From an uncultured Chloroflexia bacterium (GTDB lineage Bacteria; Chloroflexota; Dehalococcoidia; DSTF01; JALHUB01): a DNA stretch of 64,000 bases. The notes beneath the pieces were generated by a model. The model saw only the letters and a program-made list of their open reading frames with translations. It was not told where the DNA came from and made no database searches. Below are positions 1,456-62,995 of this stretch, in pieces. The stretch is taken from the NCBI GenBank assembly GCA_963719465.1, contig OY970386.1, forward strand, positions 1,369,471-1,433,470. Direction: 5' to 3'. Position numbers and translations under genes: made by a program. Position 1 is the first letter of the stretch; each line of letters begins with the position of its first letter.

Positions 1456-2415
1456 TCAGTTGCCTCCGAAGATGTGCTTCAGCGTCTGCAGGGCCTGGAG
1501 TGTCACCCACTTGCTCGGCTTGCCCTTCTGCTCGATATCCACCCACATCTTGCCATTGAGGCTCGTCTCCATCAGCCAGCGGCCCTGAGCGTCCTGCTTC
1601 CAGATGACGTGCCTTATGGCGTCGCGCAGCTGCGGCTCGGAGCCGCGGCCGAGGCGGGCCAGCGCGTACAGCGCTTCGAGGATGTTGCTGGTGTAGCTCA
1701 GGGGGAAGCCGAACTTCCGCCAGTTGGAGCTGACGGACTTGCTGCAGGGGTAGTCGGCGACGGCGAGATTGCGGCTCAAGAGGAAGGAGACGGTCTCGTC
1801 CATCGCGTCTTTCACCGCGCCGACGCGCTGGTCCGGCGGGACGGCTGAGAACGCCTGCAGCGCTTTGACGGCGCCCCAGGCGCAGGGTAGCTTCGCGTTC
1901 GCACCGCACTCGAAGTGCCTTCGGCCGACGGCGCCGGCCAGCTGCTGCACGGCCTCTCCGACGCGCGGGTCCGCCCCCCAGCCGAGCTGATAGAAGGCCT
2001 GGATGAGGTTGCCGTTGAGACAGTCGACGGCGGCGTTGGTCTGGCCGTTCAGCGAGAACGAGCCGTGCTTCGTCCGGCTGTGCCCCAGGACGTACTCGCA
2101 GCCTGTGGCTACGCGCTCGTCGCTGCCGTCGGCTGCCAGGTGCCCGAGGAAGATGATCTGCCAGACCGTGCTACGGTACTTCGGCGAGTAGCCGGGGCCG
2201 GGCTTGAACCAGTAGCCTTCGGGATCCTGAGCGGCGAGGATTGCCGGCACGGGGCCCTCGGCCATGATCGCCTTTCTTGCGGACGCGACCTGACTGTGGT
2301 CTTCGTCGAGCTCGACTAGCGAGCGCAGCGCGTGGTAGCGGACGGATGGGTTGTCCTCTTCGAGGAGCCAGTCTGTGGGGTCGTCGCGGAGGAAGTCCGG
2401 CCAGCCTGCTACCAT
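1456..2415 (-). CDS. hypothetical protein, possibly a prenyltransferase/terpene-cyclase-like alpha/alpha-toroid repeat protein
   Basis: 319-aa ORF with coding-like composition; recall-based weak resemblance to squalene-cyclase/prenyltransferase repeat proteins. The function call is tentative. Confidence 0.5.
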   Translation of the reverse strand: MVAGWPDFLRDDPTDWLLEEDNPSVRYHALRSLVELDEDHSQVASARKAIMAEGPVPAILAAQDPEGYWFKPGPGYSPKYRSTVWQIIFLGHLAADGSDERVATGCEYVLGHSRTKHGSFSLNGQTNAAVDCLNGNLIQAFYQLGWGADPRVGEAVQQLAGAVGRRHFECGANAKLPCAWGAVKALQAFSAVPPDQRVGAVKDAMDETVSFLLSRNLAVADYPCSKSVSSNWRKFGFPLSYTSNILEALYALARLGRGSEPQLRDAIRHVIWKQDAQGRWLMETSLNGKMWVDIEQKGKPSKWVTLQALQTLKHIFGGN

Positions 2416-2736
2416 TTCTCGTCAATCCTGTGCTTGCGTCGGGACGCGTGCTTATCGATTCACTGATGGGGGGCAACAAAAAACTTCTCGTGGTGTGAGA
2501 AGTTCTTCCTACTCTCATCTCTCCCGCTGCGGCAGGGTCGGACTTGGCACCATGTTGGGGGCTGATGACCTCCCAAACTGGTTGCCGGGCTTCGTAGGGC
2601 CGGTCCCTCCACCACTCTGGATAAGAGCGTTTACCGTATTCGGTTGTTACTTTATTCTAGGCTCGACGCCCAACGCCGTCAACCCGTGGCAGCGGAGCGT
2701 TTTGTGTCCTAAACGAAGAGTGGAGGGTGACGAGAC

Positions 2737-4908: not shown

Positions 4909-5433
4909 ATGCGCCTGAGCCAGGAGGGCGCTTTGGACGAGGAAGAGGGATCTCTGTCCGAGTACCGCGAGAGACTGGTCCCCACGGGGTCGCTCCGTAT
5001 TCTTCTGCTGGTACTGGCGGTCTGGGACTTCCTCGGCGGCGGCATCCAGCTTGCTCTGCACAGCTTCCTCGTGTCGATGAAGGACGGCGCGCCAAACGGG
5101 ATCATGGCGGGCAGGGCCTTCAGCGGCGCGCTCTTCATAACGGGCCTTCTCTACCTTTTCGCGGCGTTTCAACCGACGCGGTATCGCTTCATCCTCTGGC
5201 TGGCGGTCGCCGAGCAGCTGGTCGCCATCTGCACCGGCGTCTTTCATGGCGCGCGCGGCAACGTCTCCTGGGGCGGCGTGATCCTGCCGGTCGCCGTCGC
5301 GATTGCGCTGCTGATCCTGCTGCTGCTGAACTTCCCGCGCGGCCTGCCGGAGCCGGAAGAAGAGGAAGTCGGGGAAGAGGCGCTGCCGCCGGGAACAACT
5401 TCAGCGCCCGAGCCGCCGCCCGTCAAGCAATAG
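4909..5433 (+). CDS. hypothetical integral membrane protein with an acidic/Pro-rich tail
   Basis: 174 aa with 4 predicted TM helices; the 3' end overlaps the convergent glycerate kinase gene by about 30 nt, so the true start may be internal. Confidence 0.5.
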   Translation: MRLSQEGALDEEEGSLSEYRERLVPTGSLRILLLVLAVWDFLGGGIQLALHSFLVSMKDGAPNGIMAGRAFSGALFITGLLYLFAAFQPTRYRFILWLAVAEQLVAICTGVFHGARGNVSWGGVILPVAVAIALLILLLLNFPRGLPEPEEEEVGEEALPPGTTSAPEPPPVKQ

Positions 5434-6540
5434 CCGGGTCGCGCGCTCCGCCGTCGCCGAAAGCAGCTCGGCCGCCTTCGCTATGGCCTCCTCTTTCGTC
5501 ATCGGGCCGATCGCTATGGGAATCGCGGCGTCGAGGCCGAGCGCGGTCGGGTCCGCGTCGTCGGCAACGCTGCCGGCAAAGGCGATGACGGGTCGCTTGC
5601 GCTCCCGGGCCATTCGCGCGACGACGGCGACCGCTTTGCCGTAGGCGGTCTGGGAATCGAGGCGCCCCTCGCCGGTGAAGACGACGTCCGCTCGCTCGAT
5701 TCGATTCGCCAGAGATATCGCCTCCCCGACGTACTCCCCGCCGGAGATGATGCGCGCCCCCAGGAAAGCGACGAGGCCCGCGCCCAGGCCGCCCGCCGCG
5801 CCCGCCCCGTCGACTTGGGCGACGTCGATGCCCAAGTCGCGGCGAATGACGGCGGCGTAGTTCTCCAGCGCCGCTTCCAGCCCCGCGACGGCTTCGGGCG
5901 TGCCGCCTTTCTGCGGTCCGTAGACGAGACTGGCGCCGGCGGGGCCGAGAAGCGGGTTGATGGCGTCAGCGGCAACCGTCACTTGGCACGAACGGAGACG
6001 CGGATCCAGGCCGGAAACGTCGATTCGACGGAGCACGGCCAGGGCCGCGCCGCCGGGCTCGAGGTCGCGGCCATCGGCGTCGAGCAAACGAGCGCCCAAC
6101 GCCTGGGCTATGCCGGCGCCGCCGTCGTTCGTCGCGCTGCCGCCGATGGCGAGGACGAGGCGTCGGCTGTCCCGGTCGAGAGCGGCGCGAACGAGCTCGC
6201 CGACGCCTCGGGTCGTCGTCAGGCGCGGATCGCGCTCTTCGGGGCGCAGCAACGCCAGACCGTTCGCCTCCGCCGCCTCGATAAGCGCGGTGCTGTCACC
6301 GAGCAACGCCCAGACAGCCTCGCGGGGGCGTCCCAGCGGGTCGGATACGGCGGCCTTCATTCGCTCGCCCGTTATCGACGAGAGGACGGCGTCGATTGTG
6401 CCCGGACCGCCGTCGGCCATCGGCGCGAGGTCGACTTCGGCGGTCGGGTCGGCGCGTCGGGCGCCGCGGGCGATGGCGTCGGCGGCCTGGCGAGCGGTGA
6501 GGCTCTCCTTGAACTCCTGGGGACAGACAAGAATGCGCAT
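5401..6540 (-). CDS. glycerate kinase
   Basis: 379 aa, GlxK/GarK family (MRILVCPQEFKESLTA..., GGSATNDGGAG, GAGAAGGLG). Confidence 0.85.
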   Translation of the reverse strand: MRILVCPQEFKESLTARQAADAIARGARRADPTAEVDLAPMADGGPGTIDAVLSSITGERMKAAVSDPLGRPREAVWALLGDSTALIEAAEANGLALLRPEERDPRLTTTRGVGELVRAALDRDSRRLVLAIGGSATNDGGAGIAQALGARLLDADGRDLEPGGAALAVLRRIDVSGLDPRLRSCQVTVAADAINPLLGPAGASLVYGPQKGGTPEAVAGLEAALENYAAVIRRDLGIDVAQVDGAGAAGGLGAGLVAFLGARIISGGEYVGEAISLANRIERADVVFTGEGRLDSQTAYGKAVAVVARMARERKRPVIAFAGSVADDADPTALGLDAAIPIAIGPMTKEEAIAKAAELLSATAERATRLLLDGRRLGR

Positions 6541-6589
6541 GCTTGGCGTGAACTGATGATATTCCTCTTCACTTTTCAGGCGGAAGGGC

Positions 6590-6637
6590 TTGACAATAGA
6601 ACAGATATTCTATACTCTTTTGAGAGAACAAGTGTTC
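6590..6637 (+). promoter_or_regulatory. promoter-like TTGACA(6590-6595)/TATACT(6611-6616) with an overlapping GAAC-N4-GTTC (LexA/Cheo-type) box at 6626-6637
   Basis: Read directly from the sequence. The box aGAACaagtGTTCt sits just downstream of the -10; a second half-site-like GAACagatATTC lies in the spacer. Confidence 0.35.
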
Positions 6638-6656
6638 TGGAGAAGGAGACGGGGAG

Positions 6657-6776
6657 ATGAAGAAGGACAAGAGCCGATCGCGTGATTCGCGCTGCCCGGA
6701 GTGCGGTGGCCCGCTCGTCTACGGCGAGGGATGCGTCCGCTGCCCGATTTGCGGCTTCACGCGCTGCGGCTGCTGA
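6657..6776 (+). CDS. small Cys-rich zinc-ribbon protein (39 aa: MKKDKSRSRDSRCPECGGPLVYGEGCVRCPICGFTRCGC)
   Basis: Hand-translated ORF below the track's 60-aa cutoff, with a GGAGA RBS 6 nt upstream and CxxC...CxxC...CxC spacing. Confidence 0.4.
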   Translation: MKKDKSRSRDSRCPECGGPLVYGEGCVRCPICGFTRCGC

Positions 6777-6852
6777 GCTAACGTCTCGTCGCCTGGGTCT
6801 GGCCGGACGCGTCTTGCGTTGACACACCTCTGTCATCGGGTATCATGAAGGC

Positions 6853-8172
6853 GTGATTGCCGGAACCGCCGCAGAGAAGAGCGTCGAAAGCCGTTCGCCC
6901 GTGTCGCCGCTAACCGTGGCCGTGCTGACGGTGGGCTGCAAGCTCAACCAGGCCGAGTCGGAGGCGATAGCCGGAGAGCTGGGGAAGGCGGGCTGGCGCG
7001 TCGTTGACCGGGCGACGCAGGCCGACGCGTTCATAATCAACACCTGCGCGGTTACGCACGTGGCGGAGCGCAAGTCGCGGCATCTGGTCCGGCTGGCGCG
7101 ACGGCTCTCGCCCGGCGCTCGGATAGTCGTTACCGGTTGTCTGGCTGACAGGGCCGGGACTGACGCGTTGTCGGCGCTGGGAGCGGACGTGATCCTTGAG
7201 AATAGCGAGAAGGAACGTGCCGCCCACCTTTTGCTGAGGGTCCCGGCGGTGGACGGCGCTTCGGGCGGCGCCGGGCGGCTCCGGACACGGTCCTTCATCA
7301 AGATTCAGGAGGGCTGCGACGACGTCTGCGCGTTCTGCGTCGTGCCCCAGACGCGGGGCCGCGAGCGAAGCGTTCCCGTCGCCGACGTTCTGAGGGCTGT
7401 CAGGTCGGCGGAGGCGGATGGCGTGAAGGAAGTCGTGCTGACGGGCACGCAACTGGGCGCGTACGGCCGCGACGGCGGCAAGAGCGACCTGGCGGAGCTC
7501 ATCCGGCTGGTGCTCTCGGACAGCGACGTCCCGCGCGTTCACGTTTCCTCGCTGCAACCGCAAGACATTACGCCTTCCTTGCTCGACCTGTGGGGCGACC
7601 CGCGCCTGTGCCGCCATTTCCACGTCCCGCTGCAGAGCGGCAGCGACGGGGTGCTGGCGCGAATGCGGCGTCGCTACACGACGCGGCAGTTCGCTGAGGC
7701 GCTCGCAGAGATACGGCACCGCGTGCCTGACGCAGCCATCACCACCGACGTGCTGGTTGGCTTTCCGGGCGAATCGGACGAGGACTTCGAGGCGACACGC
7801 CGGCTCTGCCGCGAGGTCGGGTTCGCGGCGCTGCACGTCTTCCCGTTCTCGTCGCGGCCGGGGACGCTGGCCGCCGGGATGCCGGCTCAGGTGAGCGCGC
7901 AGGTCAAACGGGAGCGCGTGCGGCAGATGCTGGCGCTGGGCGAGGAGCTGCGAGCAGCGTTTCTTGCTCGGTTTCAGAGCGCGACCGCAGAAGTGCTTTT
8001 CGAGAAGAGGGTTCGCGGAGAAGCCGGCCAAATGCTGTGGGAAGGGCTGACCGACAACTACATCCGGGTGCTGGTGCCATCGGAGCAATCGCTGGTGAAT
8101 TGCATCGTGGCCGTGAAGCTGGGCGAGCGTCGCGGCGACAGCCTGCTCGGGGAGTGCAGGAGGGCAGGATGA
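6853..8172 (+). CDS. mtaB: MiaB-like tRNA methylthiotransferase (MtaB-type radical SAM)
   Basis: MTTase N-terminal domain plus a radical-SAM CxxxCxxC (CDDVCAFC); the first ~15 codons may be an N-terminal over-extension. Confidence 0.8.
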   Translation: MIAGTAAEKSVESRSPVSPLTVAVLTVGCKLNQAESEAIAGELGKAGWRVVDRATQADAFIINTCAVTHVAERKSRHLVRLARRLSPGARIVVTGCLADRAGTDALSALGADVILENSEKERAAHLLLRVPAVDGASGGAGRLRTRSFIKIQEGCDDVCAFCVVPQTRGRERSVPVADVLRAVRSAEADGVKEVVLTGTQLGAYGRDGGKSDLAELIRLVLSDSDVPRVHVSSLQPQDITPSLLDLWGDPRLCRHFHVPLQSGSDGVLARMRRRYTTRQFAEALAEIRHRVPDAAITTDVLVGFPGESDEDFEATRRLCREVGFAALHVFPFSSRPGTLAAGMPAQVSAQVKRERVRQMLALGEELRAAFLARFQSATAEVLFEKRVRGEAGQMLWEGLTDNYIRVLVPSEQSLVNCIVAVKLGERRGDSLLGECRRAG

Positions 8173-9744: not shown

Positions 9745-11019
9745 TTATTTCATCAGCTCGCCGATCAGGTCGTAGGCCAGCGCTTCAACGATGCGGACAC
9801 GCTTCAGGTCGCCGGGAAGCGCCTCGCCCGGGCAGAGGACGAGCCCGTCGACCTCCGGGGCGTCGCGGAAGGAGCGTCCGGCGAATAGCTTCCGTTCGGC
9901 GTCATCGCGGCCGCCTTTCGACTCCACCAGCACCGTCACCTCCTTTCCAAGCCAGCGCCTGTTGACCGACAGGGCCGTTTCCTGGGCCACGCGCATCAGC
10001 TCGCGGTAGCGACGGCGCTTGACGCGCTCCGGCACCTGGTCGGGCATGCGCGCCGCGGCGGTGCCCTCCTGCGGCGAGAACATGAACGCGCCGACGTGGT
10101 CGAACTGCGTCTCGCGGACGAAGGCCAGCAGGCCGGCGAAGTCCTGGTCCGTCTCGCCGGGGAAGCCGACCATGAGCGTCGTGCGCAGGGCGACGTCGGG
10201 CATGGCCGAGCGGAGCCGTTCGAGAGTGCGAACGGTCTGCGCGAGGTCGTGGGGGCGTCGCATGCGGCGGAGGACGGCGGGACTGCTATGCTGGAGCGGG
10301 ATGTCGAGATAGTGGCAGACCTGCGGCGACTCGGCCAGCGTGTGGATTAGGCGGGGCGAGACGTGGCCGGGATAGGCGTACATGACGCGCAGCCAGACGG
10401 ACGGCAGGTCAGCGCTCAAGCGGTCGAGAAGGCGGGCGAGGCCGTCTTTCATCCCGAGGTCCTGACCGTAGGCGGTGCTGTCCTGGGCGACGAGCACGAG
10501 CTCCTTCGTTCCGGCGCCGGCCAGGCGCTGCGCCTCCTCGACGACGCAGTCGAGCGGCTCGCTGTGGAGACGCCCCTTGATCCTCGGAATCAGGCAGAAG
10601 GCGCAGCGGGCGTTGCAGCCATCGGCGATCTTGAGGTAGGCGCTGGGAGCGGCGGCGATTTCCGCTGCGACGAGGGACGGCGTGGATTTGTCGACAAGCT
10701 TCGCCACGTCTGACCAGGCTTCGACGCCGAAGATGCGGTCGATCTCCAGCACCTCGGCGAGGAGCTCTTTGTGGTACAGCTCCGGCAGGCAGCCGATGAC
10801 GACGAGCTTCTGGCCGCGCCGCTTCTTCGTCGCGAGCTTCAGGACGGTGTTGACGGACTCTTCTTTCGCCTGGTCGATGAAGCCGCAGGTGTTGACGATC
10901 AGCAGGTCAGCCCTGGCCGCGGTCTCCGGCGCCGCGCCCGCCTCCCGGAGCGTCCGCTCGAGCTTCCTGGAGTCGGCGACGTTCTTCGGGCAGCCGAGGG
11001 TGACGAGGAAGTAGGACAT
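9745..11019 (-). CDS. rimO: ribosomal protein S12 methylthiotransferase RimO
   Basis: 424 aa; MTTase N-terminal domain, radical-SAM CNARCAFC, C-terminal TRAM. Confidence 0.85.
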   Translation of the reverse strand: MSYFLVTLGCPKNVADSRKLERTLREAGAAPETAARADLLIVNTCGFIDQAKEESVNTVLKLATKKRRGQKLVVIGCLPELYHKELLAEVLEIDRIFGVEAWSDVAKLVDKSTPSLVAAEIAAAPSAYLKIADGCNARCAFCLIPRIKGRLHSEPLDCVVEEAQRLAGAGTKELVLVAQDSTAYGQDLGMKDGLARLLDRLSADLPSVWLRVMYAYPGHVSPRLIHTLAESPQVCHYLDIPLQHSSPAVLRRMRRPHDLAQTVRTLERLRSAMPDVALRTTLMVGFPGETDQDFAGLLAFVRETQFDHVGAFMFSPQEGTAAARMPDQVPERVKRRRYRELMRVAQETALSVNRRWLGKEVTVLVESKGGRDDAERKLFAGRSFRDAPEVDGLVLCPGEALPGDLKRVRIVEALAYDLIGELMK

Positions 11020-11045
11020 GCTTAGGCTCTGAGACGAGATGGCCG

Positions 11046-11792
11046 CTACCGAGGACCCTCGCTAAGGAGGAGGGTTATGGAGTCGCCCGCGTGAACGACG
11101 CTGTTCGGCGGCGGGTCCTGGTTGATGACCAGCCCGGCGGCGACCTTGTCGTCGTTGATGGAGACGATGACGAACTTCAGCCCCTGGCCGAGGATGGTGG
11201 AAAGGGCCTGCATTCCGGCGGTTCCGCGGAAGTCGGCGAGGGTCGTCGATTCGGTCGTGGCGGTCGTGGCGGTCGCATTCGCCTCGGCCTCGGCTGTGGG
11301 AGTGTCGTTGAGCGGCTCCGCGCCTTCGTTCTTCGCCTGCGTTGACTCAGCGACGACGCCCTGGGCGGTCGGTGAAGGCGTTCCGTTGCCGCCCGAGCCA
11401 ATCTTGTAGAGGAGGAAGCCGGCGAGGAGGAAAACGAGGATGACTCCGCCAGCGATGACCCAGTTTCGCGACACGGCCGGCGGCGGGGCCTTCGTCACCT
11501 GCGGCAAGGGCGCGAGATCGGCCGCCTGACGTCCGAGTTCGGGCTGGCGGCCAAGGACTTCGGAGGAATCGACGCCCAGGAACTGGGCGTAGGTCCTCAG
11601 GAAGGCGCGGCAGTAGACGGGGGCTGGAAGGGCGTCGAAATCGTCGTGCTCTAGGGCGTCGAGGTAGCGACGGGCAATCCGGGTCTCGCGTTCAACGTCA
11701 TCGAGGGTCAGGCCCCTGGCGATCCGCGCTTCTGAGAGGATCCTTCCAAGAGCTGCCAAGCGGGGGTCAGGTACCTGTTGCATAGTGGACAA
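11046..11792 (-). CDS. RodZ-like cytoskeletal protein (XRE-type HTH, one TM segment, C-terminal domain)
   Basis: N-terminal HTH (LTLDDVERETRIARRYLDALE), a TM segment, a Thr/Ala-rich linker and a DUF4115-like C-terminus. Confidence 0.65.
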   Translation of the reverse strand: MSTMQQVPDPRLAALGRILSEARIARGLTLDDVERETRIARRYLDALEHDDFDALPAPVYCRAFLRTYAQFLGVDSSEVLGRQPELGRQAADLAPLPQVTKAPPPAVSRNWVIAGGVILVFLLAGFLLYKIGSGGNGTPSPTAQGVVAESTQAKNEGAEPLNDTPTAEAEANATATTATTESTTLADFRGTAGMQALSTILGQGLKFVIVSINDDKVAAGLVINQDPPPNSVVHAGDSITLLLSEGPR

Positions 11793-12211
11793 TCGCGAGT
11801 CTAACCGCTCCTGATGTTAGGCTCAACCCGTGGGCTCTATCCATAATACCACGGAGGGCGCCGGTTGCGGGGAGCTCCGCCACTTCTCGTCGAAAACCCG
11901 GTGGCGAAGGGCTGGAGATGAGCTTGGCGGACGTGGCGAAGGCGCTGGATGACTGAAGAATCGACAAGAATAGCAGAAGACGGCCGGGGGAGCCTGGCCG
12001 CCTTCCGCCAATCCAGACCGCCTCTGGCACCCTCAAACCACAGACGGCTTTCAAATATTGGGTAGGAGGTTCGCCTGTATTGTCTCTCTCAGATGTTGTG
12101 CGCCTATAGCTGCCAAGTTAACAATCGGTAAAACGTGCAAAATCTGAACGACTTTCTTGACCCTCCTTTCCGGCCGCCCCTTGTGATTCAGCCGGCTCGG
12201 TTGATCGCCCT

Positions 12212-15477: not shown

Positions 15478-16184
15478 TGCTTGTAATTCGCGATATCTAC
15501 ACGGCGTACGGACCAATCATGGCCCTGCGGGGCGTCTCGCTGGAGGTGCCGGAAGGGGCGATAATCACGATTCTGGGCGGCAACGGCGCTGGCAAGAGCA
15601 CGACTCTGCGGACGATCTCGGGGCTGGTGCACCCGGTCAAGGGGCAGATCGAGTTTCTGGGGAAGCGCATCGAGAAGCTTTCGCCGGAGAAGATCGTCCA
15701 GATCGGCATATCGCAGGTGCCGGAAGGCAGGCAGATCTTTCCCGAGCTCACAGTCATGGAGAACCTGCGTCTCGGTGCTTACATTCGTCGAGATGGTCGC
15801 GCGGTTCGACGCGATATCGACCGGGTCTTCGAGTATTTTCCAGTGCTCAAGGAGCGCCAGAAGCAGGAGGCCGGCACGCTTAGCGGCGGCGAGCAGCAGA
15901 TGGTGGCGATCGGTCGAGCGCTGATGGCCAAACCGCGCATATTGCTTCTCGACGAGCCATCGCTTGGCCTTGCGCCGCTGGTGGTGCAGCAGATCTTCGG
16001 CATTATCAAGACGCTCAACGAGAACGAGGGCATCACGATCCTCCTGGTCGAGCAGAACGCGGGTTCGGCGCTGAAGATCGCGAAGCACGGGTACGTGCTG
16101 GAGATCGGCAGGGTGGTTCTGGAAGACACGGGCGAGAATCTGCGTAAGGACGAGGCCGTCCGCCGCTCCTACTTGGGGTATTAG
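15477..16184 (+). CDS. livF: branched-chain amino acid ABC transporter ATP-binding protein (LivF-like)
   Basis: Walker A GGNGAGKST, LSGGEQQM signature; start overlaps the livG stop. Confidence 0.85.
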   Translation: MLVIRDIYTAYGPIMALRGVSLEVPEGAIITILGGNGAGKSTTLRTISGLVHPVKGQIEFLGKRIEKLSPEKIVQIGISQVPEGRQIFPELTVMENLRLGAYIRRDGRAVRRDIDRVFEYFPVLKERQKQEAGTLSGGEQQMVAIGRALMAKPRILLLDEPSLGLAPLVVQQIFGIIKTLNENEGITILLVEQNAGSALKIAKHGYVLEIGRVVLEDTGENLRKDEAVRRSYLGY

Positions 16185-57213: not shown

Positions 57214-57311
57214 TGGCGGGAGTGGGTGGGAGTCGAACCCACCCGGGACGGCGCAGGCCGCCCCGCAACGATTTTGAAGACCGCGAGACCCACCGGGACC
57301 CATCCACTCCC
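57214..57311 (-). tRNA. selC: tRNA-Sec (selenocysteine, anticodon TCA) candidate
   Basis: Hand-folded 98-nt tRNA: 8-bp acceptor GGGAGTGG/CCACTCCC, 5-bp T-stem with loop TTCGACT, anticodon loop CTTCAAA, long variable arm with a 7-8 bp stem, discriminator G, CCA encoded. The D-stem is G-U rich. Aligns nearly column-for-column with E. coli selC (D-loop CGGT, CTTCAAA and ...GTCCCGG-GTGGG-TTCGACTCC... shared). Confidence 0.65.
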
Positions 57312-57672: not shown

Positions 57673-57716
57673 AGACCGCGAGAGCCACCGGGACCCATCC
57701 ACTCCCGCAGATTGTT
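57673..57716 (-). repeat. 44-bp direct repeat (1 mismatch) of the selC 5' half plus 4 upstream nt; second copy of 57277-57320
   Basis: TGAAGACCGCGAGA(C/G)CCACCGGGACCCATCCACTCCCGCAGA occurs at both sites; copy B abuts the trxB stop codon. Confidence 0.8.
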
Positions 57717-58656
57717 ACGAAGGCGGCGTCCAGGCGCCGAACTTCTCGCCGATGTACTTGTCGGCGCGAATGGCCGCCGTCGCGCCGTCACCGGCCGAGC
57801 TGACGACCTGACGCGCCGCGCCGCTGCGGACGTCGCCGGCGGCGAAGATGCCGGGGACGCTGGTTTCCATCCACTCGTTGACGATAACGTAGCCGGCCTC
57901 GTCCATGGCGACGACGCCCCGCAGGTAGTCGATATTCGGCTGCTGCCCGATGAAAACGAAGAGGCCTGTGAGCTCGAGAGACGATTCCTCATCGCTTTCG
58001 AAGTTGCGCAGCCTGACGCCGCTTACCATACCATCACCCTGCACTTCAGTGACAACGGTGTTCCAAAGGAAGTCGATCTTGGGCTCGGCGAAGGCGCGCT
58101 CCTGCAGTATGGGCGCGGCGCGCAGCCGGTCGCGACGGTGGATGACGTGGACTTTCGAGGCGTAGCGGCTGAGGAAGACGGCTTCGTCCAGGGCCGCGTC
58201 GCCGCCACCGACGACCGCGACCTCCTGTCCACGGAAGAAGGCGGCGTCGCAGGTCGCGCAGTAGGAGACGCCGCGTCCGATGAGGCGCTCTTCGCCCGCG
58301 ACGCCGAGGCGCTTGTAGCCGGCGCCGCCGGCGGCGATGACGGTTTTCGTGTAGAACTCGCCCTCGCTGGTCTTGACGAGGAAATGGTTGTCCTCGGCGG
58401 GCTCGACGGAATCGGCCATGGCGTAGGTGGCGAGGAGGCCGTATTTTTCGCCTTGCTTGAGCATGGCCTGGGAGAGGTCGTAGCCGTTGATGCCGTCAGG
58501 GAAGCCAGGGTAGTTTTCGACGACGGCGGTGAGGGCGATCTGACCGCCAACGACGCCTTTTTCGAGTAATACAGTGCAGCGGCGGGCGCGGGATGCGTAG
58601 AGGCCTGCCGTCAGGCCGGCGGGCCCGGCGCCTATTATCACAACGTCGCAATCCAT
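57715..58656 (-). CDS. trxB: thioredoxin-disulfide reductase
   Basis: Canonical TrxB from MDCDVVIIGAGPAGL with the redox-active CATC; the track ORF starts 9 codons upstream. Confidence 0.9.
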   Translation of the reverse strand: MDCDVVIIGAGPAGLTAGLYASRARRCTVLLEKGVVGGQIALTAVVENYPGFPDGINGYDLSQAMLKQGEKYGLLATYAMADSVEPAEDNHFLVKTSEGEFYTKTVIAAGGAGYKRLGVAGEERLIGRGVSYCATCDAAFFRGQEVAVVGGGDAALDEAVFLSRYASKVHVIHRRDRLRAAPILQERAFAEPKIDFLWNTVVTEVQGDGMVSGVRLRNFESDEESSLELTGLFVFIGQQPNIDYLRGVVAMDEAGYVIVNEWMETSVPGIFAAGDVRSGAARQVVSSAGDGATAAIRADKYIGEKFGAWTPPS

Positions 58657-58692
58657 GCGCTTGTGTGGTTCCAAGGGCTGCAATCGAGTTCT

Positions 58693-59479: not shown

Positions 59480-61549
59480 CTAGGAACGCACGCGCTTCTG
59501 CTTGTGCGTCACGTAGTCGATGAGGACGTATTCGCCCAGGCCTTCGGGCGTCGTGTAGAAGATTCGCCCCTTGTTGATCTTCGCGAGCTTGTCGACGAAA
59601 TCGTTGAGCTGGTAGTTGCGGTCGAGCATGAAGACGTTGATGACAATGCCGGCGTCAGTGCAGCGCTTGACCTCCCGCAAGGTCGCGGCGATGGTCGCGG
59701 CGCTGGGCGGGTAGGCGAAGCGGGCGTGGCCGCGCTCGAGATGGGCGGTCGGCTCGCCGTCGGAGATCATGATGATCTGGCGCGTTCCCACCTTGTGCTT
59801 CGCCAGCAGCTTCTGGGCGATGATGAGCGCGTGGTGCATGTTGGTGCCGAGGACCGACTCGTCCCAGTTCAGGTAGGGCAGATCCTGAGCGTCGACCTGA
59901 TGGGCGTAGGCTGAGAAGCCGACGATGTAGAGCGCGTCGCGGGAGAACTTGCCGGCGATGAGGCTATTCAGGGCGAGCGCGACCTTCTTCGCGGCCTGGA
60001 AGCTGCCGCGCAGGGCCATCGACCAGGAGAGGTCGACGAGGACGACGGTTGAGGTCTGGGAGAGCAGCTCGCTGCGGTAGACCTCGAAGTCGCCTTCCTC
60101 CAGGTGAACGGGCGGCCCGGGCGAGGGCTCCCGCTGGAGCGAGTTCATGATCGTCTGCTGGAGGTGGAAGTGCATCGGGTCGCCGAACTCGTAGCGCTTC
60201 GTCTCGTCCGCCGGGTCGCCGACGAGGCCGGCGCTGCGGGTGAGGTGGCTGCCGGCGCGGCCGGACCGGATGCGCGAGTAGACTTCCTCGAGCGCCCTCT
60301 CGCCGATCTTGCGGATTGCGCGCGGCGTTAGCTCCCAGCCGCGGCCTTTGCGGCGGACGTACCCCTCGCGCTCAAGCACTTCCAGGAAGCGCCGCAGCTG
60401 CTCGAACGATTCCTTCGCCTCGTCGCCGAGCAGGCGGGCGATGCGCTCCGGGTCGATCTCCTCGATGTCGCCGCCTTGCTCGACGCGCTGGAGCTGGCTC
60501 TCCAGGCCATCGAGGTCCTGCATGTGGTCCATGAGGCGCATCGCTTCGCTGATGTCGAGCCCCTCCTCGCCGCGGAAGGAATAGCGGCTGCGCAGGAGGT
60601 TCATGGGGTAGAGGAGGTCGAGGGCGGCGGCGAGCTCATTCAGCTCTTCATTCAGCTCGGGGTCGGCAATCTTTTCGCCCAGGAGGTCGTGGAGCTGGTC
60701 GCGCAGGTCAGGGGGCAGGCTGTCGAGGACGGCGGTCATCTGGCCGATCTGCTGCTGCATCTGCGCGACGAGGTCGTCGAGGCTCTGCGGCGGCTCCGGG
60801 CCGAAGAGGTCGCCATGTTTGGCCATGAACTCGTCGAAGTTGGGCTCTTCGCCGGCGATCTTTTCGGAGATCATGCGGTTGAGGTCTTTGACCATGTCCT
60901 TGAGGCGCGCCATCTGCGCTGGCGACATGTCGGAGATGCGGCGATGTAGCTCTTTGAAGAAGGAGTCGAGCATGGCCTTGCGGAGCATCTCCAGGAGCTC
61001 CTGGAACTTGTGCTGGGCCTCGGGGTCGATGAACTCGTAGTCCTGCAGGCCTTTCACCTGGCCGCCGATGTCGCCGGGTAAGCGCTTCAGGTAGTCCTGC
61101 TTGCGCTCGATGATGTTCTTCAGCATCCCGGCGAACTGGCGCTCCGGCTCCTCTTCCGGCTCTTCGCCCTGGCCGGCGTCGGGCGGCTCGGCGGGCGACG
61201 CGCTCTGCTCGATCTGGGTCTGCGCCTCTTCCAGGCGGCGTCGGAGGGTGTCCTTTTCCATGCGCAAGACCTCGTCGACGCGCTGGCGGATGTCCTCGAT
61301 GACAGACGTGAGGTCGTAGCGCTCGAGGAGCTGGCGGCGCTGCTGGCGAAGGCGGCGGAGCAGCTCGCGGAGGCCGGGGACGCGCTGGCCCTGCTGGTTC
61401 AGAAGGCCGCGCTGCAGGAGTCCGCGGAGGGCGTGCTGAAGGTCGCCGAAAGAGAGGAGGTCGTCGGTGAGGCCGCGGAGGAGGTCGTCCGCGTCGGGAG
61501 TTGGGACGTCGCGACTGCCAGTCCACCGGGAGTAGCGGTAGCGGTGCAT
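59480..61549 (-). CDS. VWA domain-containing protein (ChlD/CoxE-like partner of an AAA+ ATPase), with an acidic Pro/Glu linker
   Basis: 689 aa; C-terminal von Willebrand A domain with a MIDAS-type VDLSWSM...; the N-terminal region is coiled-coil/Arg-Leu rich. Confidence 0.75.
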   Translation of the reverse strand: MHRYRYSRWTGSRDVPTPDADDLLRGLTDDLLSFGDLQHALRGLLQRGLLNQQGQRVPGLRELLRRLRQQRRQLLERYDLTSVIEDIRQRVDEVLRMEKDTLRRRLEEAQTQIEQSASPAEPPDAGQGEEPEEEPERQFAGMLKNIIERKQDYLKRLPGDIGGQVKGLQDYEFIDPEAQHKFQELLEMLRKAMLDSFFKELHRRISDMSPAQMARLKDMVKDLNRMISEKIAGEEPNFDEFMAKHGDLFGPEPPQSLDDLVAQMQQQIGQMTAVLDSLPPDLRDQLHDLLGEKIADPELNEELNELAAALDLLYPMNLLRSRYSFRGEEGLDISEAMRLMDHMQDLDGLESQLQRVEQGGDIEEIDPERIARLLGDEAKESFEQLRRFLEVLEREGYVRRKGRGWELTPRAIRKIGERALEEVYSRIRSGRAGSHLTRSAGLVGDPADETKRYEFGDPMHFHLQQTIMNSLQREPSPGPPVHLEEGDFEVYRSELLSQTSTVVLVDLSWSMALRGSFQAAKKVALALNSLIAGKFSRDALYIVGFSAYAHQVDAQDLPYLNWDESVLGTNMHHALIIAQKLLAKHKVGTRQIIMISDGEPTAHLERGHARFAYPPSAATIAATLREVKRCTDAGIVINVFMLDRNYQLNDFVDKLAKINKGRIFYTTPEGLGEYVLIDYVTHKQKRVRS

Positions 61550-61553
61550 GGCC

Positions 61554-62954
61554 CTAGCCTCGATAGTGCGCGCGGTGGCCGACGATGTCTTTGCTGAGGC
61601 GCTTGTTGAGGTGGAGGCCTTCGAGGACGAATTCGACGGCGGAGGCGACGGCGGCGGGCTTTTCGCCGACCTTCAGGTGGGCGACGGCGCGCTCCAGGCC
61701 CGGTACGCTCTTGAGCAGAGAGACGTAGCTTTTGGCGGGCGTCAGGTCGGAGGTCTCGACGACGAGGCCACCCTTGAAGCCGTCGACGGTCTGCTCGAGG
61801 TCGTCGAGGTTGAAGTAGCGGTTGAAGACGGAAAGAGCGCCGCTGGCGACCAGCTTCTCCAGGATCTGCTCTTCGCGGCTCTCATCCAGCGTCTCGAACT
61901 CGATCTTGCCGCTGAGGGCGGGGAACAGGTAGTAGAGATCGCTGATGCGGGGGACGACCTCTTTTTCGTCGAGCCGGATGGCGCGACGAAGGGCGTTGGC
62001 GAGGAGTGTCTCGTAGTCGGTGATGGAGGCGCGGACGGACACGCCGGAGCGCTGGTTGACATCGGGGCTGCGGCGGGCGAGGCGGGTGATCTCGGCGATG
62101 ATCTCTTTCATATACTGGGGGACGAAGACGTCCTTCACTTCTTGCGGGAGGACTCGTGCTTCCTGCTCCATGACCGCGATCTCGTCGTCGACGGTACGCG
62201 GGTAGTGGGTGCGGATCTGGGCGCCGAAGCGGTCCTTGAGCGGGGTGATGATGCGGCCGCGGTTGGTGTAGTCCTCCGGGTTGGCGCTGGCGACGATGAA
62301 GACGTCGAGGGGCAGGCGGACGCGATAGCCGCGGACCTGGACGTCGCGCTCTTCCATGATGTTGAGGAGACCGACCTGGATGCGCTCGGCGAGATCGGGC
62401 AGCTCGTTTATGGAGAAGATGCCGCGGTTGCTGCGGGGGACGAGGCCGTAGTGGATGGTGAGCTCGTCGGAGAGGTAGCGGCCCTCGGCGACCTTGATCG
62501 GGTCGATCTCGCCGATGAGGTCGGCGATGGTGATGTCCGGCGTGGCGAGCTTCTCGCCGTAGCGCTCTTCGGGCGTGAGCCAGACGATGGGCAGGTTGTC
62601 GCCCTCGTCGGCGGCGCGGTCGCGGCAGGCGCGGCAGATGGGAGCGAAGGGGTCGTCGTTTATCTCGCAGCCGGCGACGGCGGGAACGGCGTCGTCCAGG
62701 AGCTCGACGAGCTGGCGGATGAGGCGGGACTTGGCCTGGCCGCGCTCGCCGAGGAAGATGACATCCTGGCCGGAGAGGATGGCGTTTTCAAGCTGCGGGA
62801 GGACGGTGTCTTCGAAGCCGATGAGGCCGGGGAAGAGCGGCTGGCCGGCCCGCATCTTGCGGATGAGGTTGCCGCGCATCTCCTCGCGGACGGGCTTCGT
62901 GCGATAGCCGGAGGAGCGCAGTTCGCCGAGCGTCTTGGGTCGGTCCTTCGTCAT
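61554..62954 (-). CDS. ChlI/BchI-like AAA+ ATPase (magnesium-chelatase subunit I family)
   Basis: 466 aa; Walker A GERGQAKS, a Cys-containing insertion (CEINDDPFAPICRACRD), Walker B/sensor regions, and a C-terminal helical domain as in ChlI. Lies 4 nt upstream of the VWA gene. Confidence 0.75.
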   Translation of the reverse strand: MTKDRPKTLGELRSSGYRTKPVREEMRGNLIRKMRAGQPLFPGLIGFEDTVLPQLENAILSGQDVIFLGERGQAKSRLIRQLVELLDDAVPAVAGCEINDDPFAPICRACRDRAADEGDNLPIVWLTPEERYGEKLATPDITIADLIGEIDPIKVAEGRYLSDELTIHYGLVPRSNRGIFSINELPDLAERIQVGLLNIMEERDVQVRGYRVRLPLDVFIVASANPEDYTNRGRIITPLKDRFGAQIRTHYPRTVDDEIAVMEQEARVLPQEVKDVFVPQYMKEIIAEITRLARRSPDVNQRSGVSVRASITDYETLLANALRRAIRLDEKEVVPRISDLYYLFPALSGKIEFETLDESREEQILEKLVASGALSVFNRYFNLDDLEQTVDGFKGGLVVETSDLTPAKSYVSLLKSVPGLERAVAHLKVGEKPAAVASAVEFVLEGLHLNKRLSKDIVGHRAHYRG

Positions 62955-62995
62955 TTCAGTCCTTCCGCGATTAGTACCCTATAAATGTTAACCGG

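Follow-up and report, generated by a model that had tools for sequence, protein, structure and literature searches.

The window analysed here is a stretch of 64,000 nt from contig OY970386.1 of an uncultured Chloroflexia bacterium. Between its glycerate kinase gene and mtaB lies a gene of 120 nt, preceded by two predicted LexA operators, whose small Cys-rich product resembles the C-terminal tail of the B12-dependent ribonucleotide reductase (RNR) NrdJ. The same interval contains an AT-rich stretch of about 70 bp with a local GC content of 0.40-0.45, in a window of 65% GC. The gene and its control elements are the following:

6590-6595, forward strand: -35 hexamer TTGACA, read from the sequence
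6597-6612, forward strand: predicted LexA operator O1, TAGAACAGATATTCTA, inside the promoter spacer, assigned by motif and conservation
6599-6610, forward strand: core of O1, GAACAGATATTC, one mismatch to GAAC-N4-GTTC, within the spacer between -35 and -10
6611-6618, forward strand: -10 region, TATACTCT, read as TATACT (6611-6616, 15-nt spacer) or TACTCT (6613-6618, 17-nt spacer)
6625-6638, forward strand: predicted LexA operator O2, the perfect palindrome AGAACAAGTGTTCT, core 6626-6637, at about the transcription start
6643-6648, forward strand: Shine-Dalgarno sequence AAGGAG, 8 nt 5' of the ATG
6657-6776, forward strand: gene of the 39-residue zinc-ribbon mini-protein, ATG at 6657, stop codon 6774-6776 included

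The initial annotation had described TTGACA, TATACT, aGAACaagtGTTCt at 6625-6638, a ribosome-binding site (RBS) and an open reading frame (ORF) of 39 codons, and all of these are present at those coordinates. Its promoter, TTGACA followed by TATACT, exists as far as both hexamers are concerned, but the more likely -10 is TACTCT, because the close relatives L005 and L006 show tcTATGCT at the equivalent offset. The promoter scan reported no -10 here, since it took spacers of 16-18 nt and TATACT is only 15 nt from the -35. What had been called a half-site-like element in the spacer does exist, but it is a full second box with one mismatch, the O1 core, and the centres of O1 and O2 are 27 bp apart. 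The translation, MKKDKSRSRDSRCPECGGPLVYGEGCVRCPICGFTRCGC, has a basic N-terminus and seven Cys (C13, C16, C26, C29, C32, C37, and C39) instead of the eight counted earlier. The label "unannotated" has to be dropped as well, as public gene callers already predict the ORF: the exact peptide is present in NCBI/ENA predictions on a 2.31-Mb contig, and an R7Q variant was called by a gene finder on a 3.2-kb Logan contig. Rfam showed no structured RNA in 6300-7100.

Scanning of a genome collection with the alignment of the peptide family gave 385 relatives, the best 80 of which were examined. Almost all of these 80 come from metagenome-assembled genomes (MAGs) of Dehalococcoidia/Chloroflexota. About 70 are stand-alone ORFs of 35-60 codons, while full-length NrdJ accounts for seven Micrarchaeota loci and one from SAR202. 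Complete genomes with the peptide include OY969814.1, CP070630.1, OZ241365.1, and CAVQVC010000001.1. Family members are named in databases as "uncharacterized Zn finger protein (UPF0148 family)", "hypothetical protein" and, once, "ribonucleoside-diphosphate reductase alpha chain"; a protein search by word index, for which the peptide was lengthened to 40 aa by padding, gave no candidates. Among the orthologues the 25-codon Cys core occurs in 69 distinct nucleotide versions, with entropies at the first, second and third codon position of 0.30, 0.26, and 0.95, respectively, and 63% of the codon differences are synonymous. Six Cys (C13, C16, C26, C29, C32, and C37) are invariant in 69/69 versions, and the same holds for the core's prolines, glycines and EGC motif. 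The start of the ORF, the RBS and the promoter are also conserved, the ATG of the relatives being likewise preceded by GGAG-type sites. Judged by this pattern of substitution, ORF 6657-6776 is a genuine gene under purifying selection, and the conservation of the small ORF, raised as a question by the initial annotation, is found at 69 distinct loci. One further observation concerns MAG JBGQEU01, in which one and the same peptide locus occurs on two contigs (L010 6657-6734 and L031 85-174), with the break at the gene. The copies differ once (CPDC vs. CTDC), and strain variation or a split in the assembly is a more probable cause than a pair of paralogues.

The same data bear on a more sceptical view, namely that the ORF arose by chance, is a decaying 3' fragment of nrdJ, or encodes the precursor of a ribosomally synthesized and post-translationally modified peptide (RiPP) for the radical-SAM enzyme next to it. 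The ORF is indeed tiny, Cys-rich and adjacent to a radical-SAM gene, and high-GC DNA holds many spurious ORFs. Nevertheless, 69 orthologues with conserved start, RBS and promoter, and with substitutions mainly at third codon positions, effectively refute the chance and pseudogene readings. As for a RiPP, the neighbor passes the NCBIfam cut-off as an MtaB equivalog and has a UPF0004 N-terminal domain and no SPASM or RiPP features, and in about 12 loci mtaB does not adjoin the peptide gene. Taken as a whole, we consider the probability of this explanation negligible.

Concerning the identity of the product, residues 3-38 of the peptide align with positions 724-759 of the 759-position NCBIfam model NF006417 (B12-dependent ribonucleotide reductase NrdJ; E-value = 7.7e-9), a model that is matched by 21/21 aligned family members. 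An exhaustive search with phmmer brought up genuine NrdJ C-termini along with numerous short proteins. When hhalign was used to compare the stand-alone family and 22 NrdJ tails, the alignment ran end to end with 99.3% probability (E-value = 8.3e-21), and identity to the SAR202 NrdJ tail is 62-67%. The Cys spacing of the peptide, CX2C-X9-CX2CX2C-X4-C, is that of the NrdJ cysteine-rich domain (CRD); within the pattern CX2C-X9-CX2CX2C-X4/5-C it matches C920/923/933/936/939/945 of S. nassauensis NrdJ; in the syntenic family the chain ends 0-2 residues past the last conserved Cys, as it does in NrdJ. Pfam offered only sub-threshold zinc-ribbon matches, and membership in UPF0148 (PF06677, Auto_anti-p27) was rejected, its 18.1 bits being below the Pfam gathering cut-off of 24.1. 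The AF2 model of the peptide is a three-strand zinc ribbon with a pLDDT of about 85 over residues 11-39. On these profile-level comparisons, the peptide is a free-standing homologue of NrdJ's C-terminal zinc-finger/redox tail, a similarity which points to ribonucleotide reduction rather than, or besides, cell division.

In the NrdJ tail, four Cys have been proposed as zinc ligands and two as carriers that bring electrons to the active site (Loderer et al., 2017, PMC5704485; Burnim et al., 2022, PMC9669993). Specifically, C933 and C945 form the electron shuttle of the S. nassauensis enzyme, all six Cys are needed for turnover, and the physiological electron donor of the tail is still unknown (PMC5704485). 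By analogy with this enzyme, C13, C16, C29, and C32 of the peptide are probably its zinc ligands and C26 and C37 its redox pair. We were able to classify the Cys of 143 relatives, all of which keep the four zinc ligands. Both C26 and C37 are present in 124 of them, both are absent in 17 (about 14 genuine cases and three mis-anchored matches) and only one is present in 2. The two non-zinc Cys thus appear to behave as a functional pair, kept or lost together, which independently supports the proposed division between a zinc site and a redox pair.

Related fingers were also seen in other settings. A 43-aa zinc ribbon (P0018, in L166 120-7332) has the four zinc Cys without the redox pair and lies in a phage-like module of dUTPase, thymidylate synthase, the ribbon, dCMP deaminase, a family A DNA polymerase and a PD-(D/E)XK nuclease; this nucleotide-metabolism setting is suggestive, as a single case. 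A viral scan yielded NrdJ tails of phages and, in varied contexts, a small number of stand-alone fingers. Five viral contigs (L171, L175, L176, L177, and L179) encode small NrdJ-tail-like fingers with no nrdJ within 5 kb, and the neighbors of the viral stand-alone fingers are a protease, a glycosyltransferase and unknowns.

The promoter of the peptide gene is conserved in its architecture. Two GAAC-N4-GTTC boxes, each with at most one mismatch, were found in 60 of the 67 loci with enough upstream sequence, always in the order TTGACA, 2-3 nt, box 1, -10, 11-26 nt, box 2, RBS, ATG, and the remaining 7 loci have the same layout with one weaker box. TTGACA stands 2-3 nt 5' of box 1 in nearly all orthologous loci. 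As background, only 2 of 5341 windows of 200 nt hold a pair of boxes 20-40 bp apart. The spacing between the boxes ranges from 23 to 38 bp, with clusters at 23 bp and 31-34 bp. About 20 loci (e.g., L034, L036, L038, L040, L059, L065, and L067) have GAAC-N4-GTGC, 11-13 nt and GCAC-N4-GTTC, at a spacing of 23-25 bp. Such pairs combine perfect outer half-sites with degenerate inner ones, an arrangement that suggests cooperative binding of two dimers.

The boxes also concentrate at this gene. The loci of relatives, 1.12 Mb of sequence, hold 71 perfect boxes. The peptide gene has 56 of these in the 300 nt upstream of it, a longer paralogue is preceded by 4 and lexA by 1; the other 10, mostly inside genes, are at different places. 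In the window itself, two perfect boxes were counted where 0.82 were expected, and 24 of 100 shuffled sequences reached at least two, so a single perfect box in 64 kb carries no significance alone. The pair at 6599/6626 comprises the only boxes of the window, at up to one mismatch, in AT-rich intergenic DNA. What is unusual is therefore the pairing of the boxes, their position in the promoter and their conservation. The perfect boxes at L041:1332, at L047:18946 and at 16055 of the window are intragenic or beside unrelated ORFs and were taken as chance occurrences. The longer paralogue, of about 100 aa (L071 9727-10090 and L079 3593-3969), ends in CPDCGGPLVNGEGCVACPVCGFSRRGW, with Arg in place of its last Cys. 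Upstream of it are two perfect boxes at a distance of 23 bp, and it lies outside the glyK-mtaB synteny. No Pfam domain was detected in its N-terminal extension.

In Firmicutes and Actinobacteria the GAAC-N4-GTTC palindrome is the established LexA motif, variants of it occur in Chloroflexi, and tight, cooperative repression has been linked to tandem LexA sites (PMC4951493). One of the loci, L032, has the peptide gene with two perfect boxes and, about 6.5 kb away, a lexA gene whose product combines the LexA_DNA_bind and Peptidase_S24 domains; the lexA promoter is followed by GAACACAGGTTC. Scanning of metagenomes with this LexA gave 80 loci at 66-96% identity, 75 of them with usable upstream sequence. 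A box precedes lexA in all 75 (53 perfect, 22 with one mismatch, mostly GTTT), against a single-box background rate of 5.4% of windows. The initial annotation had left open whether lexA promoters carry this motif, and in related Chloroflexota they do. At the level of the clade, the usual features of a LexA regulon are found: a palindrome over the promoter and transcription start, the same motif at lexA, and an operator conserved across species. We therefore regard LexA binding and damage induction of the peptide gene as very likely on motif and conservation, and the addition of a tandem-operator member to the Chloroflexota LexA regulon as well supported. The proposal of an SOS-controlled small protein, made from the window alone, thus gains computational support from both the tandem boxes and the lexA boxes of the clade.

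NrdR would be the foremost candidate if the palindromes were operators of a regulator other than LexA. The peptide is RNR-related, NrdR boxes also come in tandem, and the LexA assignment is made on the motif. The genes of the reductase itself speak to this point. When the top 120 homologues found with the SAR202 NrdJ were inspected, many of them labelled Chloroflexi, Dehalococcoidia or SAR202, 112 proved to have their own six-Cys tail (CPDCNGPVLMQEGCxxCPxCGWNKCG) at the end. Clusters with the conserved order ftsA-ftsZ-nrdR-(small ORF)-nrdJ were seen in L162 1-5709, L180 1-5211, and L181 1-5211, and their nrdR promoters carry the NrdR-type palindromes ATACTATATATTGTAT, CACCAAGATATGGTG, and CCCCAAGATGTGGTGG; none of the nrdR promoters of the Chloroflexota nrdR-nrdJ loci retrieved has GAAC-N4-GTTC. 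Because of these tails and boxes, Chloroflexota NrdJ would normally have its own tail, and nrdJ would be controlled by NrdR and not by LexA. The boxes of the window are GAAC-N4-GTTC and not the 16-bp acaCwAtATaTwGtgt palindromes, and membership in the NrdR regulon was rejected. Given also the 75/75 lexA promoters and the match to the published LexA motif (PMC4951493), control of the peptide gene by NrdR or another such regulator is very improbable.

The peptide gene is flanked by the following features:

5401-6540, reverse strand: glycerate kinase gene, the divergent upstream neighbor (Pfam Gly_kinase, E-value = 1.7e-134)
6819-6846, forward strand: mtaB promoter TTGACA-16-TATCAT, from the promoter scan and conservation
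6853-8172, forward strand: mtaB, tRNA t6A37 methylthiotransferase (TIGR01579, 386 bits against a cut-off of 357; Pfam UPF0004 and Radical_SAM)

Synteny study showed that the order glyK (divergent), peptide, mtaB, ORF8037, scpB is kept down to about 50% MtaB identity; ORF8037 is a membrane protein with no Pfam match. The GTG start of mtaB at 6853 is only 6 nt past the -10, so the mtaB mRNA is probably leaderless. A second radical-SAM methylthiotransferase, of the MiaB/RimO family (9745-11061, reverse strand; UPF0004, Radical_SAM, and TRAM), lies 1.6 kb from mtaB and overlaps the start of a protein with HTH_25 and PASTA domains and a RodZ-like look (11046-11816, reverse strand).

This arrangement allows another explanation of the operators, namely that they mainly control mtaB, ORF8037, and scpB by read-through, the small ORF being a leader or passenger. 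No intrinsic terminator was found between the peptide stop codon and mtaB, and the intergenic RNA folds no better than shuffled sequence, so some read-through into mtaB is possible. The order peptide, (mtaB), ORF8037, scpB is moreover kept in most loci. On the other hand, mtaB has a promoter of its own, which together with the start is nearly invariant in seven relatives, while the DNA from the peptide stop codon to that promoter is unconserved. About a dozen loci have no mtaB adjoining the peptide gene, in L074 the peptide gene and its boxes are together inverted relative to mtaB, and a leader would have no need of the strong purifying selection seen on the amino acids. The boxes accordingly appear to belong to the peptide gene; control of mtaB, the alternative raised by the initial annotation, is unlikely to be their main function, and the passenger hypothesis as a whole is improbable.

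Taken together, the data lead us to propose that the gene encodes a LexA-repressed, damage-inducible zinc ribbon of 39 residues, a free-standing NrdJ tail module that acts on the partners of the tail, and to this hypothesis we assign a probability of about 0.45. In normal growth two LexA dimers, one on O1 in the spacer between -35 and -10 and one on O2 at the transcription start, would hold the near-consensus promoter shut; the tandem operators hint at a product that is unwanted under these conditions. After DNA damage, RecA-stimulated self-cleavage of LexA would free the promoter and a burst of peptide would be made from the strong RBS. The peptide would fold around zinc through C13, C16, C29, and C32 and, like the NrdJ tail, expose the thiols of C26 and C37 at the very C-terminal end. 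Because the zinc site, the redox pair and the C-terminal position are all kept, it would be likely to meet the partners of the tail, that is, the entrance of the NrdJ active site and/or the tail's unidentified reductant. In this way the supply of deoxyribonucleoside triphosphates (dNTPs) might be adjusted during SOS, a state which the NrdR-controlled nrdRJ operon cannot sense directly. NrdJ can be named as the target only tentatively from the similarity. Action in trans of an SOS-released tail copy of about 4 kDa on the class II RNR of Dehalococcoidia-type Chloroflexota, whether by shuttling additional electrons or by competing with the enzyme's own tail for the active site or the reductant, is possible but rather doubtful.

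Several observations weigh against this proposal. No nrdJ was found within about 10 kb of the roughly 70 peptide loci or in the 64-kb window, and linking an NrdJ to a contig or MAG with the peptide did not succeed, also for the three nrdJ contigs inspected. The subfamily differs systematically from true tails (HGEGC instead of QEGC, and CGF[ST]RC instead of CGWNKC), so that its partner may be another one. Generic zinc ribbons, none of them significant, were all that came from Foldseek and from a sequence search of the PDB. Relatives in other lineages are without the redox pair or without any LexA box, such as the distant stand-alone homologue P0009, which has no GAAC box, and the LexA-boxed paralogue of about 100 aa (L071/L079) is without the last Cys. 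Finally, a separately expressed full CRD did not restore the activity of a tail-less NrdJ in vitro (PMC5704485).

The main rival reading is that the gene is a LexA-repressed SOS gene with a target outside RNR, the likeness to the NrdJ tail being a matter of ancestry only. With its zinc ribbon and basic N-terminus, the peptide could block division or replication, bind nucleic acid, or serve as a general thiol/zinc redox sensor. The absence of linked nrdJ, the fixation of the residues that separate the subfamily from real tails, and the existence of relatives without the redox pair and of the boxed paralogue without the last Cys are all in line with such a role. So are the generic zinc-ribbon fold, with weak matches to UPF0148/Auto_anti-p27 and RpoP-type ribbons, and the presence of scpB, a chromosome segregation gene, among the conserved downstream neighbors; the tight repression that tandem operators imply is usual for inhibitors of division and for SOS products with toxicity (PMC4951493). 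However, the six Cys, including two that are dispensable for zinc binding, are invariant in 69/69 members of the syntenic family, the C-terminus falls 0-2 residues after the last Cys as in NrdJ, and NrdJ is the best and most consistent match of the family. Nor does the peptide show a transmembrane segment or any other trait of the SOS division inhibitors that are known. We consider a target outside RNR a credible alternative, though one that falls short of even odds.

Other features of the window can be mentioned briefly. A SAM riboswitch (RF00162, 73.8 bits) at 2512-2627 on the reverse strand lies upstream of a 321-aa ORF (1456-2421, reverse strand) with no Pfam match. Since a tRNA-Sec gene (57214-57311, reverse strand) adjoins a gene for a thioredoxin-reductase-like pyridine nucleotide-disulphide oxidoreductase (57715-58692, reverse strand), the organism probably uses selenocysteine. 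A 730-aa ORF (59480-61672, reverse strand), with very high GC content at third codon positions and no Pfam match, adjoins a 474-aa AAA_5 (MoxR/dynein-like) ATPase (61554-62978, reverse strand).

Compared with known systems, the proposed NrdJ tail module is closest to the CRD zinc finger of NrdJ and to NrdJb. It shares with them the six-Cys array, the motif CP[DE]CG...EGCxxCPxCG...C, the extreme C-terminal position and the predicted zinc-ribbon fold, and the profile-level similarity is significant. It differs in that it corresponds to the last ~30 residues with a short basic leader, without an IscU-like/TSCPD or catalytic domain, and belongs to a subfamily with HGEGC and CGF(S/T)RC. NrdJb is a protein of about 230 aa encoded beside nrdJa, whereas the peptide is stand-alone, with 35-60 aa in its family, is not encoded beside nrdJ, and has LexA-type instead of NrdR-type boxes. 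Because of this stand-alone state and the lack of nrdJ around its loci, it is a free-standing homologue and not an RNR subunit as currently defined. No free-standing, LexA-controlled NrdJ tail was described in the literature searched, and within that literature and to our knowledge this is the first separately regulated NrdJ zinc-finger tail that is free-standing. The UPF0148/COG1645/PF06677 ribbons, whose name is the IMG label of family members, are four-Cys proteins of similar length with weak profile matches, but they are without the extra Cys pair of the peptide, and the NrdJ model is the stronger and more consistent match.

Concerning regulation, the gene shows the overlap with promoter and transcription start known from SOS genes with tandem operators, such as lexA, recN, colicin genes and yqjW-yqzH of B. 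subtilis (PMC4951493). It also has the same palindrome as genes with the Gram-positive-type SOS box (GAAC-N4-GTTC). From the known genes of LexA regulons it differs by its box spacing of 23-38 bp and by its product, which would be a new kind of SOS protein. The small SOS effectors SulA, YneA, SidA/DidA, SosA, DinQ, and TisB (see also PMC3567139) are short, LexA-repressed, made upon damage and bind a cellular machine, most of them being membrane peptides or FtsZ binders. The peptide has no sequence or fold similarity to any of these and, in contrast, is a soluble zinc ribbon with a predicted redox Cys pair. The eukaryotic RNR inhibitors Sml1 and Spd1 and the bacterial redoxin NrdH are small proteins that act on the RNR tail or the reduction step, although Sml1 and Spd1 are removed after damage and not induced, and NrdH has a thioredoxin fold. 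Their sequences are unrelated to the peptide, and only the concept is shared, namely competition with the Cys tail or electron delivery coupled to damage, with the role of the peptide being hypothetical.

The confirmation of GAAC-N4-GTTC as the SOS box of the clade on 75 lexA promoters is of use in itself, as the LexA regulon of Chloroflexota is almost unstudied. If the proposed function is true, the peptide would represent a new bacterial route that couples DNA damage to dNTP synthesis and bypasses NrdR. It would then be a bacterial counterpart of the small eukaryotic regulators directed at the RNR tail, and a handle on the reductant of CRD-type NrdJ. A soluble tail of 39 residues is, moreover, easy to synthesize, and could be used as a bait for the donor of the tail and as a probe of tail docking.

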